A stretch of DNA of 64,000 nucleotides from an uncultured Rhodobacteraceae bacterium (GTDB lineage Bacteria; Pseudomonadota; Alphaproteobacteria; Rhodobacterales; Rhodobacteraceae), in contig CANMAI010000013.1 in assembly GCA_947495795.1 (NCBI GenBank), positions 48,157 through 112,156 of the forward strand, given 5' to 3'. Of this stretch, positions 27,092-34,916 are shown piece by piece. The notes under the pieces are model-generated. The model worked only from the letters and a program-made list of their open reading frames with translations, made no database searches and was not told where the DNA came from. A program made the translations under genes and the position numbers. Numbering within the stretch: position 1 is the stretch's first letter; each line of letters starts with the position of its first letter.

Positions 27092-27146
27092 TGGTGGGTT
27101 AGCACCCACCCTACAGGCAGCGCGTAGGGTGGGTGTTAACCCACCG
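27092..27146. repeat. REP-like nested hairpins immediately upstream of the RAYT gene
   Basis: cacccaccctac (27104-27115) pairs with gtagggtgggtg (27125-27136) as a perfect 12-bp inverted repeat. Additional ggtgggt/acccacc arms flank it. Confidence 0.6.
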
Positions 27147-27173
27147 TTTACCAAGGCCCGTCACGTTGCGCCC

Positions 27174-27662
27174 ATGTCGAATTACCGTCGCGCCAGGGCT
27201 GCCGGAGCCACCTATTTCTTCACCGTTGCATTGCAGGAGCGTGGCTCCGCGCTTTTGGTGGATCGGATTGACGATCTTCGCGCGGCTTTTTTGAAGGCTA
27301 CCGCGGATGCGCCCGTTCAGGTCGATGCAATGGTGGTTTTGCCTGATCATCTGCATGCTGTGTGGACTTTGCCGCCTGGGGATCGGGATTTCTCGGGCCG
27401 TTGGCAACGTTTGAAGGAGAGTTTCACAAAGTCCACAGGGTTGGAGCGGCCAAGGAGTTATTCAAAACGGGCCAAAGGTGAAAAGGGTGTTTGGCAGCGG
27501 CGGTTTTGGGAGCATCTGGTGCGGGATGAGGCGGATTTCGCGGCGCATGTGGAGTATTGTTGGATCAATCCGGTGAAACATGGGCTGGTGCGCAGTGTGG
27601 CCGATTGGCTGTATTCATCCTTTCAACGGGATGTTCGGAGAGGGATGGTTGCGGCAGATTAG
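27174..27662 (+). CDS. REP-associated tyrosine transposase (RAYT, IS200/IS605 TnpA-like)
   Basis: HuH motif LPDHLHAVW and the conserved Tyr region (WQRRFWEHLVRDEADF) are present. Adjacent REP hairpins. Confidence 0.75.
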   Translation: MSNYRRARAAGATYFFTVALQERGSALLVDRIDDLRAAFLKATADAPVQVDAMVVLPDHLHAVWTLPPGDRDFSGRWQRLKESFTKSTGLERPRSYSKRAKGEKGVWQRRFWEHLVRDEADFAAHVEYCWINPVKHGLVRSVADWLYSSFQRDVRRGMVAAD

Positions 27663-27829: not shown

Positions 27830-28507
27830 ATGTCATATTACGAAAGAATTGCTAGAGAAGTTAAGAATGCTAAAGACTATTTTCTCAATTGGCCAGCAAA
27901 TGAACCAGTAAAGCTTGGGGACTACGGCTTTTACAATGGTAGAAGGGTGTCATTTGATTGGCAGGGGAATCTCTCGAGCTTCGGTGTGAATCTCGCTCCA
28001 CTTTCTGAAAACCTTCCTATGTCTCAGTCAACACGGAGTGGCGGTTCTGTGGATGTTAAATTTGATTTGCGTAGTTCGACGCCAGCCTCGGCTAGGCTTG
28101 CATTTCGCAAGAAGCATTGCGTTTCGTTTGAATCTCATGGCGGAGTGATTGAAAAGGTTGAAATGGATTTGTTGTTTAAAGCAATTCTGGAACGCATCGG
28201 TATTGGGGAACTCACTTGGAACCCACACTGGGTAGTAGTGACTCAAATCTATAAAGTTGATTCATTTTCCTCGTTTGTCTCGGGTTCGAAAAGTGCGGGT
28301 GCAGAGGTTGTTGCTTCGACGTGCGCACGAACGACACCATTTTCATTGGCAGATCCTTCTGGTGGCCTTAGCATAGGTAATCAATGCCAGATGGCGCACT
28401 GTTCAGTAGCAGAGAGAGGCGCACTACCTTTTTTTGTCATCGGCAAGGTGAAAGGCGAAAAGGACGGGTCCTTGCGAATGGAACGGTACGGCCTGGGCGA
28501 GCGATAG
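27830..28507 (+). CDS. hypothetical protein (225 aa) in a strongly low-GC insert
   Basis: ORF MSYYERIAREVKNAKDYFLNWPANEPVKLGDYGFYNGRRV... with AT-rich codon usage (about 45% GC by eye, against a genome that looks above 60%). No recognisable motif, signal peptide or TM segment. Confidence 0.45.
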   Translation: MSYYERIAREVKNAKDYFLNWPANEPVKLGDYGFYNGRRVSFDWQGNLSSFGVNLAPLSENLPMSQSTRSGGSVDVKFDLRSSTPASARLAFRKKHCVSFESHGGVIEKVEMDLLFKAILERIGIGELTWNPHWVVVTQIYKVDSFSSFVSGSKSAGAEVVASTCARTTPFSLADPSGGLSIGNQCQMAHCSVAERGALPFFVIGKVKGEKDGSLRMERYGLGER

Positions 28508-30248: not shown

Positions 30249-30719
30249 ATGGAACGGTTATCGGAATTGATTGCGCGGGTGGCGCAGCCGGGGCGGGTGG
30301 ACTGGCTTGGAGTACGGCCTGTGCGTAAGGGAGCGGTACGGGTTGTGGAGGCTGCGGAGTTGGGGCTTCGTGGGCTTGAGGGGGATCACGGCACGAGTGA
30401 GAAGCGGGCGCTGACTTTGGTGCAGGCGGAACATCTGGCGGTGATCGGGGCTTATCTTGGGTGCGGGCCGGTGGCAGCGGAGGATTTGCGGCGGAATGTT
30501 GTGGTTTCCGGGATCAATCTGCTGAGCCTGCGGGGGCGCGTTGTGGAGATTGGTGGGGCTGTTGTTGAGGTGACGGGGCCGTGTGCGCCGTGCAGCCGGA
30601 TGGAGGCCGCCTTCGGGCATGGGGGCTATGCGGCTGTGCGCGGGCATGGGGGTGTGACGGCGCGCGTGTTGGAGGTGGGGCGGATTGCCTTGGGGGATGT
30701 GGTGCGGCCCAGAGACTAG
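30249..30719 (+). CDS. MOSC domain-containing protein
   Basis: Conserved Cys in GPCAPCSRM is typical of the MOSC beta-barrel. Start chosen at internal Met MERLSELIARV of the track ORF 30165-30719. Confidence 0.55.
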   Translation: MERLSELIARVAQPGRVDWLGVRPVRKGAVRVVEAAELGLRGLEGDHGTSEKRALTLVQAEHLAVIGAYLGCGPVAAEDLRRNVVVSGINLLSLRGRVVEIGGAVVEVTGPCAPCSRMEAAFGHGGYAAVRGHGGVTARVLEVGRIALGDVVRPRD

Positions 30720-30900
30720 TGTTGCGAGCTTGCTACATGTTGCGCTGTCTTGAAATATAGTTTCGCATCGAATCGAGTGGTTGCCGTAGAGGAAGGCTCC
30801 CGTCCTGACGGACCGGACCCTTGCGGTTGGAGATGCATCTCCGCCGGTGCGGGAGGCTCTGCCGAACCGTATGCCAGGGCCGAGATGAAACGGCGGGATT

Positions 30901-30973
30901 GGGTTTGTAGCTCAGTCTGGTAGAGCGCCGGGGTTTCCCGGAGGACGCAGGTTCGAATCCTGTCTGACCACCC
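30901..30973 (+). tRNA. tRNA-like element 1 (canonical D- and T-arms; anticodon arm and acceptor stem do not fold canonically)
   Basis: GGGTTTGTAGCTCAGTCTGGTAGAGCG (D-arm) ... GCAGGTTCGAATCCTGT (T-arm). The ccggg/cccgg anticodon stem encloses only a 4-nt loop (gttt). The 5' gggtttg does not pair with the 3' ctgacca. Confidence 0.4.
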
Positions 30974-31050
30974 TTGATGTAGCTCATCCTGGTAGAGCAA
31001 CGGACCATTAATCCGTGTGTAGTGGGTTCGATTCCCATCATCACTCGCCA
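30973..31050 (+). tRNA. tRNA-like element 2 (Asn-like scaffold; anticodon loop CCATTAA; 2 terminal acceptor mismatches)
   Basis: cttgatg ta GCTCATCCTGGTAGAGC a acgga CCATTAA tccgt gtgta GTGGGTTCGATTCCCAT catcact c GCCA. Acceptor pairs 5 of 7. Anticodon would be ATT with C33. Confidence 0.4.
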
Positions 31051-31429
31051 AATAGGCACCAGTTTTAGGTACTGGCTACATGTGACTAAAGGGCTTCGGG
31101 GCTGGCGTGCAGGCTGGCCCGGACGGGTGTGCCTTCGGGTGCATTTGAAAGGCTCGGCTTGCCCGGCATGTGCGCCGGTGAGGACTGATGGTTGCGGCCC
31201 CGGCGGGCCTGGCTTTGGGGCTTTTGCTTCGAGGCTCCGCTCGGTGGGCAAGGCTTCGGGGTGCTCCCTTCGGCTTTGCCTGTGGGTCCAACGCCCTCTC
31301 GTCTTTTGCCCGTGTGTGTGGCGGCTTCGCCGGCTCCGAAGTCTGCATTTCAATTCCGGTTGTAAGCCGGATTATCCGGGGGTGATTGTGCCCCAAAAAA
31401 CTAGCCGGATCGCCGGCGGAAAGGAGGAC

Positions 31430-32569
31430 GAGATGGAAAATCTTGTGAAAATGCTTCTCGGGTTTGAGAAGGTGATTGTGATGGAGAACACGCGCGCCGT
31501 TGTTTTGGAAAATGGCCAAGTGTCGCGCATCCTGAAGCCGGGCCTGTACTGGCTGCGCCGGAAAGATACGGATGTGGAGAGCCACAGCCTGAGCCGTGCG
31601 GAGTTTGTCTCGTCCTATGAGCGGGCGCTTGTGATGGAAAGGCCGGATCTGGCGACTGACCATCTGACCTTGATCGAGACCGGAGAGGATGAGGTGGCCG
31701 TGGTGCTGCGGGACGGGCGCATTCATGATGTGATGGGGCCGCAGATGCGAGCCGTGCTCTGGACCGATGCAGGGGCGTGGACTGTGGAGCGTATCGATGT
31801 AAGCGAGACGCTTGACGTTGATGCGCGTATGGCCACGCGATTGGCGCGGGCCGGGCAGACGGCGCGGGTTGCCACTTTTGAGGTGCCGGAGGCCCATGTT
31901 GGGTTGATGAGCCTTGAAGGGGCCTTCGACCGTGTGCTTGAGGCCGGGACGCATCGCTTTTGGGCCGTGGCGCGGAAGATCGACGTGAAGCTCGTCGATC
32001 TCAGGCGTCGGGTGCATGACGTTGTGGGGCAGGAGATCCTGACCAAGGATCGGGTGACGATCCGGGTGAACCTTGCGGCCGATTTCCGCGTGGCGGATCC
32101 GGTGAAAGCCGTAACGATGGTGAAGGATTTCGAGGAAGCCTTGCACCGGGCCTTGCAGTTTGCCTTCCGCAAAACGCTTGGAGCGCTGACGCTGGATGCG
32201 CTTTTGGCGGAGAAAGTGAGCGTGGATGCCGAGGCTGCCGCACTTGTGCGCAGCCAGATGGCGGAGATCGGGCTCGAGGTTGGTGAGATCGCCTTGAAAG
32301 ACGTGATCCTGCCGGGTGAGATGCGCGACATCCTGAACAAGGTTGTGGCTGCCCAGAAAGAGGCCGAGGCCAATGTGATCCGGCGCCGGGAAGAGACGAA
32401 CGCGACGCGCTCGTTGCTCAACACGGCGAAGGTGATGGCCGAGAACCCGGTGATGCTGCGCCTGAAGGAGCTTGAGGCTCTGGAAGGGATCGCCGCGAAA
32501 GTGGATACGCTGACAATCCACAACGGGACGGACGGGTTGATGAAAGACCTTGTGCGTTTGCGCGACTGA
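31430..32569 (+). CDS. SPFH/band-7 domain protein
   Basis: ATG 31430 preceded by a perfect SD (GGAAAGGAGGACGAG). Product carries SPFH-like features (MENLVKMLLGFEKVIVMENTRAVVLENGQV...), with coiled-coil and Ala/Glu-rich regions. The track ORF 31022-32569 reads through the upstream tRNA-like and spacer region and is rejected as the start. Confidence 0.65.
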   Translation, partial: EMENLVKMLLGFEKVIVMENTRAVVLENGQVSRILKPGLYWLRRKDTDVESHSLSRAEFVSSYERALVMERPDLATDHLTLIETGEDEVAVVLRDGRIHDVMGPQMRAVLWTDAGAWTVERIDVSETLDVDARMATRLARAGQTARVATFEVPEAHVGLMSLEGAFDRVLEAGTHRFWAVARKIDVKLVDLRRRVHDVVGQEILTKDRVTIRVNLAADFRVADPVKAVTMVKDFEEALHRALQFAFRKTLGALTLDALLAEKVSVDAEAAALVRSQMAEIGLEVGEIALKDVILPGEMRDILNKVVAAQKEAEANVIRRREETNATRSLLNTAKVMAENPVMLRLKELEALEGIAAKVDTLTIHNGTDGLMKDLVRLRD

Positions 32570-32717: not shown

Positions 32718-34916
32718 ATGGAGACCCTCATGAACGGTGATGGCGCAGATTTCGCAGCGGGGGCTTTGAGCACCTCTGGCAACCAGATTATCGATGCCGA
32801 AGGCAATGCGGTGGAGATCCGCGCGGTGAACTGGTTCGGGCTGGAAACAGATATCATGACGCCGCATGGGCTGTGGGCGCGGAACTGGCAGGACATGATG
32901 GACGAGATGGTGGAGGTGGGGTTCAACACCATCCGCCTTCCGTTCAGCCATGAAGCGATCGATGCGGCCACCCGCCCGGGCAACGGGATTGATTTCGGGC
33001 AGAACGCTGACCTGCAGGGGCTTTCGGCGCTGGAGATCATGGACAGTGTGATCGACTATGCCGATGAGATCGGGCTGCGGGTGATCCTTGACCATCACCG
33101 GAGTGATGCTGGTGCGGGGCCGAACGGGAACGGGCTCTGGTACACGGACGGGTATTCCGAGGCGGACTGGATCGAGATGTGGGAAGCATTGGCCGCACGC
33201 TACGGCGACAGCCCCGCCGTGATCGGCGCGGATCTGCATAATGAGCCGCATTCCGGCCAGTGGGGCGGTGGTGGCACGAACGATTGGGCGCGGGCGGCGG
33301 AGGCTGCTGGCAATGCCGTTCTGGATGTGGCGCCGGACTGGCTGATCCTCGTGGAGGGGGTGAGCAACTATGAGGGTGCCAACTACTGGTGGGGCGGGCA
33401 ATTGGCCGGGGTGCGAGACCGACCCATCACGCTGGATGTGCCGGGACGGCTGGTTTACTCGCCCCATGATTATCCGGCCTCCGTATTCGATCAGCCGTGG
33501 TTCAATGATGGTTCCAACCTCTTTGATGTATTCCGGGAGGCCTGGGGATTTATCTACGAGGAGGGGATTGCGCCCATTTTGCTCGGTGAGTTCGGATCCC
33601 GTTTGGAGACGGCGGCGGACAGAGCCTGGGCGGAGGCGATTACAGCGTATCTGGAGGGCGATTTCGACGGTGACGGTATCGTGGATATCCCCGATGGCGA
33701 TGGTGGCATGAGCTTTGCATGGTGGTCTTGGAACCCCAATTCCGGTGATACGGGCGGGATCCTGAACGACGACTGGACGACCTTTCGCCAGAATGCGGTG
33801 GAGCTGCTGGAGCCTTTGCTGGAAGGGCCTGATGTGGTGGCGCCGATGATCATGATCACTGGCAACACGGCAACCGGTGTGGCCGTTGGAGCCGATGGCG
33901 AGGTTTGGGCGACGCTTGAGAGCCAGACGGTGAGCAATGATGATGTGGCGTTTGATTTCGGGGAATTTAACGACAGCAGCTATTCGCTTGCGGGTACGGC
34001 AGAGGCAACGGCGGGCATTGGGGTGCGGTTCGGGCCGGAGAGTGCGAATAACCGGTTGGTGATTGCGACCACCGGCGAGGCATTGGGCACCGTTGCCGGT
34101 GTGACCATTGGCGGGCGGAACAATGTGGTGGAGACGGCCGGTGATATTTCAGGCGGTGATGCTGGTGTGGCTTTCACCGGTGCGACGGGGCGGAATATTC
34201 TGATCAACACAGGTACGATCTCTGAAACCGGAGCTGGCAATATTGCAGTGCTTGGCAGTTGGCAGCGCGATCTGGTGGAGAATGGCGGCGCTGTTGCAGG
34301 AGATGTGCGCCTTGGAGCCGGGAACGATACGTATCGTGGGCAGGACGGTACGGTTTCCGGCATTGTCTTCGGTGGCAACGGGAATGACGGGTTGCTGGGC
34401 GGAGCCCTTGGAGAAATGCTGAACGGCGGCAACGGAGATGACCGATTGGCAGGTTTCGGCGGAGATGATGTGCTTCGCGGCGCAGGTGGTGCCGATGTGG
34501 TTCTGGGCGGCGAAGGGAATGATCGTCTTTTCGGTGGGGATGGCAATGACAAGCTTAAGGGCGGTTTCGGTGACGACGTCCTTTTCGGCGGTGCAGGCGA
34601 TGATACCATGCGCGGAAGCAGCGGCGATGATCTGCTGGATGGTGGCGAAGGCTCGGATACGCTTTTCGGGAACGGAGGGGCGGATACTTTCCGGTTTCGC
34701 GCGGACTCGGGCAGCGATGTGATCGAAGGGTTTCAAAACAATCTGGACCGGATTGATCTGCGCCTGCTGGGGGTGGCGGATGCGGCTGCGCTGGAGGCGG
34801 CAATCGGTGTTTCGGGCGCGGATGCGGTGATTGATCTTACAGCGTTCGGTGGGGATGGGATGCTGACGGTTGCGGATAAGGCGGGCGCGTTGGATGCGGG
34901 TGATTTTCTGTTCTGA
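32718..34916 (+). CDS. glycoside hydrolase family 5 (cellulase-like) enzyme with C-terminal RTX calcium-binding repeats (T1SS substrate)
   Basis: GH5 catalytic region (IGADLHNEPH ... ILLGEFGS with the two catalytic Glu). Tandem GGxGxDxL nonapeptides (GGNGNDGLLGG, GGNGDDRLAGFGGDDVLRGAGGADVVLGGEGNDRLFGGDGNDKLKGG...). No N-terminal signal peptide, consistent with type-I secretion. Confidence 0.75.
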   Translation: METLMNGDGADFAAGALSTSGNQIIDAEGNAVEIRAVNWFGLETDIMTPHGLWARNWQDMMDEMVEVGFNTIRLPFSHEAIDAATRPGNGIDFGQNADLQGLSALEIMDSVIDYADEIGLRVILDHHRSDAGAGPNGNGLWYTDGYSEADWIEMWEALAARYGDSPAVIGADLHNEPHSGQWGGGGTNDWARAAEAAGNAVLDVAPDWLILVEGVSNYEGANYWWGGQLAGVRDRPITLDVPGRLVYSPHDYPASVFDQPWFNDGSNLFDVFREAWGFIYEEGIAPILLGEFGSRLETAADRAWAEAITAYLEGDFDGDGIVDIPDGDGGMSFAWWSWNPNSGDTGGILNDDWTTFRQNAVELLEPLLEGPDVVAPMIMITGNTATGVAVGADGEVWATLESQTVSNDDVAFDFGEFNDSSYSLAGTAEATAGIGVRFGPESANNRLVIATTGEALGTVAGVTIGGRNNVVETAGDISGGDAGVAFTGATGRNILINTGTISETGAGNIAVLGSWQRDLVENGGAVAGDVRLGAGNDTYRGQDGTVSGIVFGGNGNDGLLGGALGEMLNGGNGDDRLAGFGGDDVLRGAGGADVVLGGEGNDRLFGGDGNDKLKGGFGDDVLFGGAGDDTMRGSSGDDLLDGGEGSDTLFGNGGADTFRFRADSGSDVIEGFQNNLDRIDLRLLGVADAAALEAAIGVSGADAVIDLTAFGGDGMLTVADKAGALDAGDFLF

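Follow-up and report, generated by a model that had tools for sequence, protein, structure and literature searches.

The stretch of DNA analyzed here, which we call the window, comprises 64,000 nucleotides (nt) from an uncultured Rhodobacteraceae bacterium (GenBank assembly GCA_947495795.1, contig CANMAI010000013.1, positions 48,157 to 112,156), and the subject of this study is a tandem pair of tRNA-like elements in it, E1 and E2, that lie 5' of a gene encoding a protein of the SPFH/Band-7 family. The window is a chromosomal segment in which a MOSC-domain gene ends at position 30719, the SPFH start codon is at 31433, and the 713 nt that follow the MOSC gene contain no credible open reading frame (ORF). 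The neighbors of the SPFH locus are housekeeping genes. Our analysis places the pair in a leader RNA of ~640 nt, and we consider it highly probable that E1 and E2 are conserved, functional tRNA-like modules of a structured RNA linked to the SPFH gene. The initial annotation of this DNA had offered three explanations for the pair: tRNA pseudogenes or att-site relics, unusual tRNA-like regulatory RNAs, or real tRNAs misparsed by hand folding. The second is the option backed by the evidence, and the 150 nt then considered are part of the longer leader. The features of the locus are given below, where L followed by a number denotes a locus in a relative, L081 being the one at 90% identity, and RBS stands for ribosome-binding site.

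30720..30794, plus strand: conserved upstream block with a promoter-like site, aligned with L081 and with 36-68 loci
30795..30900, plus strand: 5' domain, a predicted multi-helix junction (RNAalifold, RNAduplex, minimum-energy fold)
30901..30971, plus strand: E1, tRNA-like module with 5 of 7 acceptor pairs, canonical D-arm and T-arm, and no CCA
30973..31046, plus strand: E2, tRNA-like module with a 5-bp acceptor stem and canonical D-arm and T-arm
31059..31075, plus strand: hairpin CCAGT-UUUAGGU-ACUGG, carrying a recurrent loop motif of the family
31086..31403, plus strand: 3' domain of G+C-rich hairpins, ~88% identical to L081 outside an insertion
31404..31417, plus strand: pre-RBS hairpin GCCGG-AUCG-CCGGC, conserved in L081 and L082
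31423..31427, plus strand: Shine-Dalgarno GGAGG, 5' of the SPFH start
31433..32569, plus strand: SPFH/Band-7 "slipin family" gene (378 aa), its start behind the GGAGG RBS

E1 reads GGGTTTG TA GCTC AGTCTGGTA GAGC G CCGGG GTTT CCCGG AGGAC GCAGG TTCGAAT CCTGT CTGACCA. Its anticodon stem, CCGGG/CCCGG, closes a 4-nt loop, GTTT, and it is followed by CCC in place of CCA. Its acceptor strands had been described as not complementary, which is correct for G1.A72 and U6.U67, both flagged by cmscan as non-pairs, and goes too far for the stem as a whole, in which five of seven pairs form. E2 reads CTTGATG TA GCTC ATCCTGGTA GAGC A ACGGA CCATTAA TCCGT GTGTA GTGGG TTCGATT CCCAT CATCACT. Its acceptor stem pairs only positions 3-7 with 66-70, positions 1-72 and 2-71 are mismatched, and there is no CCA at position 74; the ACGGA/TCCGT stem carries a 7-nt loop, CCATTAA, with the triplet ATT, C33, and A34. 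The textbook D-arms and T-arms, the short loop of E1, and the triplet, C33, and outer acceptor mismatches of E2 had all been read correctly by hand, and the suspicion that the manual fold had spoiled two real tRNAs falls away, since ARAGORN and cmscan confirm the defects. ARAGORN calls E2 alone, as tRNA-Asn(att), and leaves E1 uncalled. Against the Rfam tRNA model RF00005 (gathering cut-off 29 bits), Infernal gives 45 bits for E1 and 46 bits for E2, with E ~1e-6 for the whole 64-kb window; both are thus above the tRNA threshold with their defects marked, and the alignment of E2 spans model positions 3-68 only. The two are the sole tRNA-type matches in the window, and the minimum-energy structure of each, folded alone, is a cloverleaf. 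When E1 and E2 are folded jointly, their near-identical D-arms can pair together instead of forming two cloverleaves, and in this model the D-arm:D-arm pairing may possibly represent a misfolding trap or an alternative state.

The arrangement is tied to the SPFH gene across genomes. With the window SPFH protein as query, the best 80 of 285 SPFH relatives, at 58-68% protein identity, were kept as loci; they come from Roseovarius, Ruegeria, Litoreibacter, Shimia, Actibacterium, Mesorhizobium, Nitratireductor, and Roseibium. In 75 of the 80, ARAGORN calls either one or two tRNA-like genes at a distance of 350-650 nt upstream of SPFH, under labels that range over Stop, SeC, Lys, Met, Leu, Asn, Cys, and many "???" with two-base anticodons; four of the five loci that lack a call are cut by contig ends, and in the fifth the element was found when the sequence was parsed directly. 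The tandem pair is also present in five closer relatives (90% and 70-73% identity), each time in a different neighborhood. Every SPFH orthologue with enough upstream sequence shows the arrangement (77 genome loci, 5 close relatives, and 11 metagenome contigs), and its carriers belong to the Rhodobacterales and Hyphomicrobiales, among them many alphaproteobacteria of the sea and of soil. A comparison with relatives had been proposed as a check on the pair, and its recurrence at the same place in ~90 other loci puts it far beyond chance. When neighboring ORFs are compared all against all, the SPFH gene alone is common to all loci, with the pair 5' of it in each of at least 8 different neighborhoods: rpsA, trpF, and trpB form the upstream flank in many Rhodobacteraceae, a ketoacyl-synthase cluster the downstream flank in Mesorhizobium, and other loci are flanked by acetyltransferase, methyltransferase, AsnC-regulator, or MOSC genes. 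The linkage also holds in reverse. A DNA pattern of the 5' domain returned 120 metagenome contigs, of which, the pattern being too loose, ~90% were chance matches; after filtering by tRNA-like features and tblastn, all 11 genuine RNAs with room downstream have an SPFH protein encoded 480-590 nt away. Genuine copies of the RNA were not found among IMG/VR viral contigs, nor was any copy found among PLSDB plasmids; PADLOC gave no defense match at the locus, and no integrase was recognized among the ORFs examined near it in the window.

Covariation was assessed in the 55 loci that have both modules, many of them from related Mesorhizobium. Cloverleaf pairs are formed in 89.8% of cells, versus 42-47% when the 3' partners are slid, and 26 pairs show changes on both sides, values that 0 of 500 shuffles reach. 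Orthologues of E1 covary in the acceptor, anticodon, and T stems, and those of E2 in the anticodon and T stems. The D stems, U8-A9, the D-loop GG, and the T-loop TTCRA are invariant or nearly so, which indicates that the elbow of the L-shape is preserved in both modules. Between the window and L081, identity is 66% at the 4-fold sites of the SPFH gene, 93% in the 5' domain, and ~86% in E1 with E2, the differences in the two modules lying mostly in loops and at the E1/E2 junction and including one compensatory stem pair. Because the leader domains exceed the 66% identity of the 4-fold sites, the RNA is under purifying selection. Parsimony along the SPFH gene tree of 27 Mesorhizobium gives 0.6 steps per site for E2 outside its triplet and 1.98 for the mean 4-fold site, and the cloverleaf stems are likewise more conserved than 4-fold sites. 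A mechanically called ORF (31022-32569), in frame into the SPFH gene, was considered as coding and set aside as an artefact; since 1-, 2-, and 38-nt indels separate this region from L081, the leader is non-coding.

The variation of the modules across the 55 loci is also informative about their nature. The acceptor stem of E1 has 6-7 bp and a G at +1 in most loci, its CCA is encoded in 45, and its anticodon loop is 4-8 nt long, most often 6. The acceptor stem of E2 has 4-6/7 pairs with mismatched outer pairs, +1 is usually C, CCA is absent from 52 loci, and the anticodon loop is 7 nt long in 54, with 16 different triplets. E2 abuts or overlaps the CCA of E1, and in Mesorhizobium and Ruegeria this CCA is the first three bases of the E2 acceptor strand. 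The E1 of the window is comparatively degenerate (4-nt loop, U.U and G.A mismatches, CCC for CCA), and the same is seen in L081. Some Roseovarius and Litoreibacter loci have a short hairpin instead of E1, and the single remaining module has a better acceptor stem. At three loci, the E1 slot is occupied by an apparently canonical tRNA-Lys(CUU) (L039 5432-5506, L070 5440-5514, L077 5436-5511) whose acceptor stem has 7 bp, whose loop reads CTCTTAA or CCCTTAA, and whose CCA is encoded. As apparently real tRNAs fill this slot in some genomes, the comparison suggests that the RNA may have arisen from a tRNA-mRNA operon.

The triplet of E2 is ATT in the window versus GAT in L081, whose stem and canonical loop (ACAGA CTGATAA TCTGT) differ from those of the window by a compensatory G-C to A-U change as well. 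In pairwise comparison, triplet identity is 0.61 where 4-fold identity is at least 0.9, and each of the three triplet sites takes 6-7 parsimony steps in the 27 Mesorhizobium. Positive selection on the triplet was considered and rejected, the tree-based count showing that other unconstrained leader sites, at 9-12 steps, change as fast or faster; for this reason, we claim for the triplet a lack of constraint and nothing further. Pairing of the triplet with a co-varying site, of a T-box-like or kissing-loop kind, was also considered and rejected: in Mesorhizobium a change of triplet is not accompanied by changes in the other loops, and the hairpin with the UUUAGGU loop is likewise constant while E2 varies. 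No leader site that covaries with the E2 triplet was found.

The modules are embedded in a larger architecture, for which alignments give the order promoter, 5' domain of ~105 nt, E1, E2, small hairpins, G+C-rich 3' domain, pre-RBS hairpin, and start codon. Orthologous promoters are of the alphaproteobacterial type CTTGNN-N17-CTATAG (CTTGCG-N17-CTATAG in L063). The window has a degenerate version, TTTCGC (30761-30766) and CGTAGA (30785-30790) with an 18-nt spacer, which is a putative promoter assigned by alignment only; a sigma-70 consensus scan gave no match. Within the 5' domain, the predicted helices are P1 (30800-30811, a tetraloop hairpin), P2 (30824-30846), and P3 (30847-30872), followed by a conserved single strand, GCCAGGGCC, at 30873-30881. 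Run on 36 diverse 5' domains, RNAalifold finds P2 and P3, in which 10 of 16 pairs have compensatory changes on both sides, and the junction sequences are highly conserved. A long-range helix, P0, pairs UCCCGUC (30798-30804) with GGCGGGA (30892-30898) by RNAduplex in most lineages and in the minimum-energy fold of the window. P0 would close the 5' domain; it overlaps P1 and competes with it in most lineages, and this competition could possibly act as a conformational switch, the covariation of the two helices having been judged by eye and with RNAduplex.

Downstream of E2, the UUUAGGU loop recurs on covarying stems in L001, L005, L018, L074, and L083; its hairpin replaces E1 in L003, L004, L015, and L023 and is absent from the closest relative, L081. 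The 7-nt loop UUUAGGU/UUUGGGU appears in differing slots, namely after E2, as a substitute for E1, in the E1 loop, and in the E2 loop (the E1 and E2 loops of Mesorhizobium among them), and no complementary partner for it was found. Mesorhizobium has in addition a small GGC-CTGATAA-GCC hairpin after E2, the triplet of which varies too, and extra tRNA parts occur ~80-130 nt after E2 in L010, L014, L015, and others, as well as at L085 2170-2210: a T-arm-like minihelix, GGGG-TTCGACT-CCCC, with an anticodon-arm-like hairpin before or after it. The 3' domain contains GGGCUUCGGGG and then the hairpin GCUGGC-GUGCAG-GCUGGC (31101-31118), seen in the minimum-energy fold; the block GGGYYYCGGGG together with the hairpin is common to Rhodobacteraceae and Mesorhizobium leaders. 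A lineage-specific insertion of 38 nt relative to L081 lies at ~31250-31287 in this domain and consists of two short G+C-rich segments with CUUCGG in each (GGCUUCGGGG, CCCUUCGGC). At the end of the leader, AGAAAGGAGGACGAG is conserved in L081 and L082 along with the pre-RBS hairpin. Terminator-like sites between E2 and the ATG are seen in only 3 of 77 loci and are lacking in the other 74, which makes one long leader the simplest reading.

The partner protein, named "slipin family protein" in relatives at NCBI, has a Band_7 domain with an SPFH fold followed by a long helix, as expected of the SPFH (stomatin-prohibitin) superfamily. Its AlphaFold model (pLDDT 82.7) consists of a beta-rich N-terminal part of ~190 residues, the SPFH core, and a long C-terminal helix. 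No transmembrane helix is predicted in it (maximum 19-residue Kyte-Doolittle mean 1.1), and the window protein was found to lack the membrane anchor that stomatin, HflK/C, and QmcA typically have at the N terminus. Proteins of the SPFH type oligomerize into large rings or cages, and the nearest structures to the window protein are cage formers. An exact-match look-up of the window SPFH protein and of the EttA-type ABC-F protein encoded on the minus strand of the window gave no record.

Taken from the alignments, E1 and E2 are neither decoding tRNAs nor pseudogenes nor att relics, and the features under selection appear to be those read by enzymes that recognize the shape of a tRNA, not its anticodon. 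Purifying selection acts on the acceptor/T-arm stack, on U8, A14, and the G18-G19:T-loop elbow, and E1 usually has an encoded CCA. Plant mitochondrial t-elements are tRNA-like structures that define mRNA ends via RNase P and RNase Z (PMC1920247). The E1/E2 loci share the traits by which such elements are known: acceptor, T-arm, and elbow are conserved, and the anticodon is dispensable. No terminator-like site precedes the ORF in 74 of 77 loci. The mechanism that we favor is a form of "tRNA punctuation." The leader RNA would be transcribed from its own promoter and, meeting no terminator, continue into the SPFH gene; RNase P, and then the enzymes that act on tRNA 3' ends, would recognize the modules and cut the primary transcript there. 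The products would be a separated 5' domain, one or two stable tRNA-like RNAs, and an SPFH mRNA with a new 5' end, and SPFH expression would thereby be coupled to processing. E1 offers the features that processing enzymes read (G at +1, an acceptor stem of 6-7 bp, and CCA in 45 of 55 loci), and the placement of E2 against its CCA resembles polycistronic tRNA precursors that are separated by RNase P (PMC2190699). That the whole is transcribed as one RNA, that RNase P cleaves it, and that this has regulatory effects are steps that we infer. To the full statement, namely tRNA-derived modules in a leader of ~640 nt with the punctuation mechanism included, we assign a probability of roughly 0.42; the RNase P step in its own right we regard as tentative, falling slightly short of that.

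Several points weigh against this reading. RNase P needs only an acceptor/T-arm minihelix, which leaves the conserved anticodon stem and 7-nt loop of E2 and the D-arms unexplained. That the flanking domains (~105 nt on the 5' side, ~350 nt on the 3' side) are conserved as well shows that more than punctuation is selected, and the leader probably does more, perhaps as a regulatory switch or as a partner of a protein. Both modules would be suboptimal substrates for RNase P, as E2 has a poor acceptor stem and the E1 of the window is mismatched and has no CCA; and where the CCA of E1 lies within the acceptor stem of E2, the two cannot both be released intact. Many of the Mesorhizobium sequences are related, which inflates the covariation statistics, and the folding stability of E1 and E2 is no better than that of shuffled sequence, for which reason the evidence for structure is covariation and not folding energy.

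In a rival reading, the SPFH protein would have the whole ~640-nt RNA as its scaffold, cargo, or assembly factor and form with it a ribonucleoprotein encoded by adjacent genes, in which the T-loop/D-loop elbows of the modules would make tertiary contacts or bind protein. The two-way co-occurrence of RNA and SPFH gene despite changing neighborhoods fits such a partnership, as do purifying selection over the entire leader and not the modules alone, the additional T-arm-like and anticodon-arm-like hairpins downstream in several lineages, and an SPFH protein that has no membrane anchor, has a beta-rich N-terminal domain, and finds its nearest structures among cage formers. We consider this unlikely as things stand.

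Alternatively, the leader could be a cis-regulatory sensor, in which the tRNA mimics bind a factor that recognizes tRNA (candidates are synthetases, modification enzymes, EF-Tu, and stress nucleases), the P1/P0 pairings switch, and SPFH expression reflects a ligand or the state of the tRNA pool. Most lineages can form either P0 or P1 but not both at once, the 5'-domain junctions are highly conserved, a conserved hairpin stands immediately before the RBS, and the full L-shape, including the anticodon arm of E2, is conserved beyond what processing needs. However, even at E <= 10 there is no match to a known riboswitch or leader family, neither a terminator nor an obvious helix that would sequester the RBS was seen, the 16 triplets make a factor that reads the anticodon unlikely, and the covariation of P0 and P1 was judged by eye and with RNAduplex. 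We hold a sensor of this kind to be equally unlikely.

A further reading concerns E1 itself. AlaRS recognizes the G3.U70 pair, and G3.U70, A73, and CCA form the alanine identity set of tRNA-Ala and transfer-messenger RNA (tmRNA). In Mesorhizobium and some Rhodobacteraceae, E1 carries this set and might be released and aminoacylated as a non-decoding alanine carrier, charged by AlaRS in the manner of tmRNA. The 3-70 pair of E1 is G.U in 26, C.A in 5, and G.A in 1 of the 55 loci, so that a non-Watson-Crick pair is kept in an otherwise covarying stem (Mesorhizobium, e.g., L063 5468-5541; L005, L013, L069, and L082), A73 and CCA are present in most such loci, and the body of E1 resembles tRNA-Ala. 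Yet the set is not universal: the pair is G3-C70 in the E1 of the window, which has two mismatches and lacks CCA, and C3-G70 in Ruegeria, E1 is missing altogether from several loci of Roseovarius and Litoreibacter, and G3.U70 could be an inheritance from a tRNA-Ala ancestor; we regard a carrier as quite improbable. A bolder synthesis would see here a new class of large, structured bacterial RNA built from tRNA parts, forming a ribonucleoprotein with the soluble SPFH protein, with E1 excised and charged with alanine wherever G3.U70, A73, and CCA are kept, and thus a tmRNA-like non-decoding carrier linked to an SPFH cage or scaffold; this is improbable, and we offer it as speculation.

The variable triplet could also be read as the trace of an arms race, with the modules acting as decoys or sensors for anticodon-loop nucleases of phages or competitors. 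The E2 triplet sites do change ~3x faster than the mean 4-fold site while the 7-nt loop shape is kept, and the second small hairpin after E2 in Mesorhizobium has a 7-nt loop and a variable triplet as well. However, with other unconstrained leader positions at 9-12 steps against 6-7 for the triplet, no positive selection is needed, and the locus has no PADLOC match and no defense-gene context, lies among housekeeping genes, and was not found on viral contigs or plasmids, so we consider this very improbable. Decaying tRNA pseudogenes or att-site remnants would explain the defective acceptor stems, odd loops, and missing CCA of the window, but next to nothing speaks for them once the pair is seen to keep its position 5' of one gene and its structure at ~90 loci in two orders and in unrelated neighborhoods, with compensatory stem changes, invariant D-loop and T-loop nucleotides, purifying selection on the flanks, more conservation than 4-fold sites, no integrase recognized among the nearby ORFs examined in the window, and whole tRNA-length units kept instead of 3' halves. 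Nor is decoding by unusual but genuine tRNAs at all credible, for although the Rfam scores are above threshold and some orthologous copies look canonical (the Lys-CUU copies in L039, L070, and L077), E1 has a 4-nt loop, E2 has A34, C33, mismatches at 1-72 and 2-71, and no CCA, and even a relative at 90% protein identity has another triplet (GAT versus ATT in the window), 16 triplets occurring on one backbone.

The SPFH-linked structured RNA appears to be undescribed: a full-text literature search found no description of this tRNA-like/SPFH leader RNA, and cmscan against Rfam 15 at E <= 10, run on 30650-31500 of the window and 5200-6050 of L063, returned only tRNA hits, an echo of YrlA, and noise. 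Mimicry of tRNA within transcripts is already known; what looks new is a bacterial, tandem, and gene-linked version in a large structured RNA. The t-elements are the closest parallel in kind, in that they too are non-decoding tRNA shapes in transcripts of protein genes, with the acceptor/T-arm kept, the anticodon irrelevant, and a proposed role as processing signals. In contrast to them, E1 and E2 are bacterial, stand in tandem within a larger structured RNA of one gene family, and form full cloverleaves whose D-arms are conserved, and processing is proposed only. Escherichia coli has tRNA-mRNA co-transcripts, thrU-tyrU-glyT-thrT-tufB, secG-leuU, and metT, whose units are separated by RNase P (PMC2190699). 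These share with our loci closely spaced tRNA units 5' of a protein gene, and the E1 slot of three loci is filled by an apparently real tRNA-Lys. Their tRNAs are functional decoders, however, whereas E1 and E2 are mimics with off-size or free-running loops, set between conserved 5' and 3' domains.

The bacterial Y RNA-like YrlA (RF02553) also has a tRNA-like T-arm/D-arm elbow and is encoded beside its protein partner, but the matches to it stay below threshold, at 27.3 bits for the window and 34.6 bits for L063 versus a cut-off of 69. They span the T-arm of E1 and the D-arm of E2, and this order of a T-arm followed by a D-arm accounts for the echo; there is no Rsr/Ro60 gene and no Ro-binding stem. 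The tRNA-like domain of tmRNA is likewise a mimic that has no working anticodon and is joined to an mRNA-containing transcript, and Mesorhizobium E1 has its G3.U70, A73, and CCA. Unlike tmRNA, the leader has no tag reading frame and no pseudoknot ring, the alanine set is absent from the E1 of the window, and ARAGORN found no tmRNA in the window or the loci. The MALAT1/MEN-beta mascRNA-type and viral 3' tRNA-like structures use mimicry for end formation or factor recruitment and not for decoding, as may E1 and E2, but are eukaryotic or viral single units at 3' ends with unrelated sequence. Finally, OLE, GOLLD, ROOL, and raiA resemble the leader in being several hundred nt long, multi-domain, conserved with covariation, and associated with characteristic genes; the leader differs from them in its restriction to Alphaproteobacteria, its place before one gene, its partial composition of tRNA modules, and its lack of an Rfam match.

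To our knowledge, most of the tRNA mimicry in transcripts described so far comes from organelles, viruses, and eukaryotic long non-coding RNAs, and the leader would add a bacterial case within an mRNA leader. The RNA is widely distributed in the Rhodobacterales and Hyphomicrobiales, including Mesorhizobium, Ruegeria, and Roseovarius, and its clear covariation and strict gene partner make it a ready target for experiments in cultivable model strains, as well as a function-linked handle on a soluble SPFH protein family. There is also a practical consequence for genome annotation: as tRNA finders call the modules tRNA-Asn(ATT), tRNA-Stop, tRNA-SeC, or "tRNA-???", they will contaminate tRNA gene counts and analyses of anticodon usage, and attempts to find suppressor or recoding tRNAs in such genomes will be affected in the same way.

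Some further observations concern the rest of the window. Directly 3' of the SPFH gene, the plus-strand gene at 32718-34916 fuses a GH5 cellulase domain to RTX calcium-binding repeats, which suggests that its product may be a secreted glycosidase; this gene is not at the same position in L081, where a GGDEF-EAL gene directly follows. Upstream, a 177-aa ORF on the plus strand (27129-27662) has the motif LPDHLHAVW. This motif recalls HUH/Y1 REP-associated transposases, but Pfam gave no match at E <= 0.001; no family was found for the 225-aa ORF next to it (27830-28507). GC skew is positive in nearly all 1-kb bins of the 64 kb, and the cumulative skew reaches 7.5, consistent with a window that lies in one replichore with most of its genes on the plus strand.

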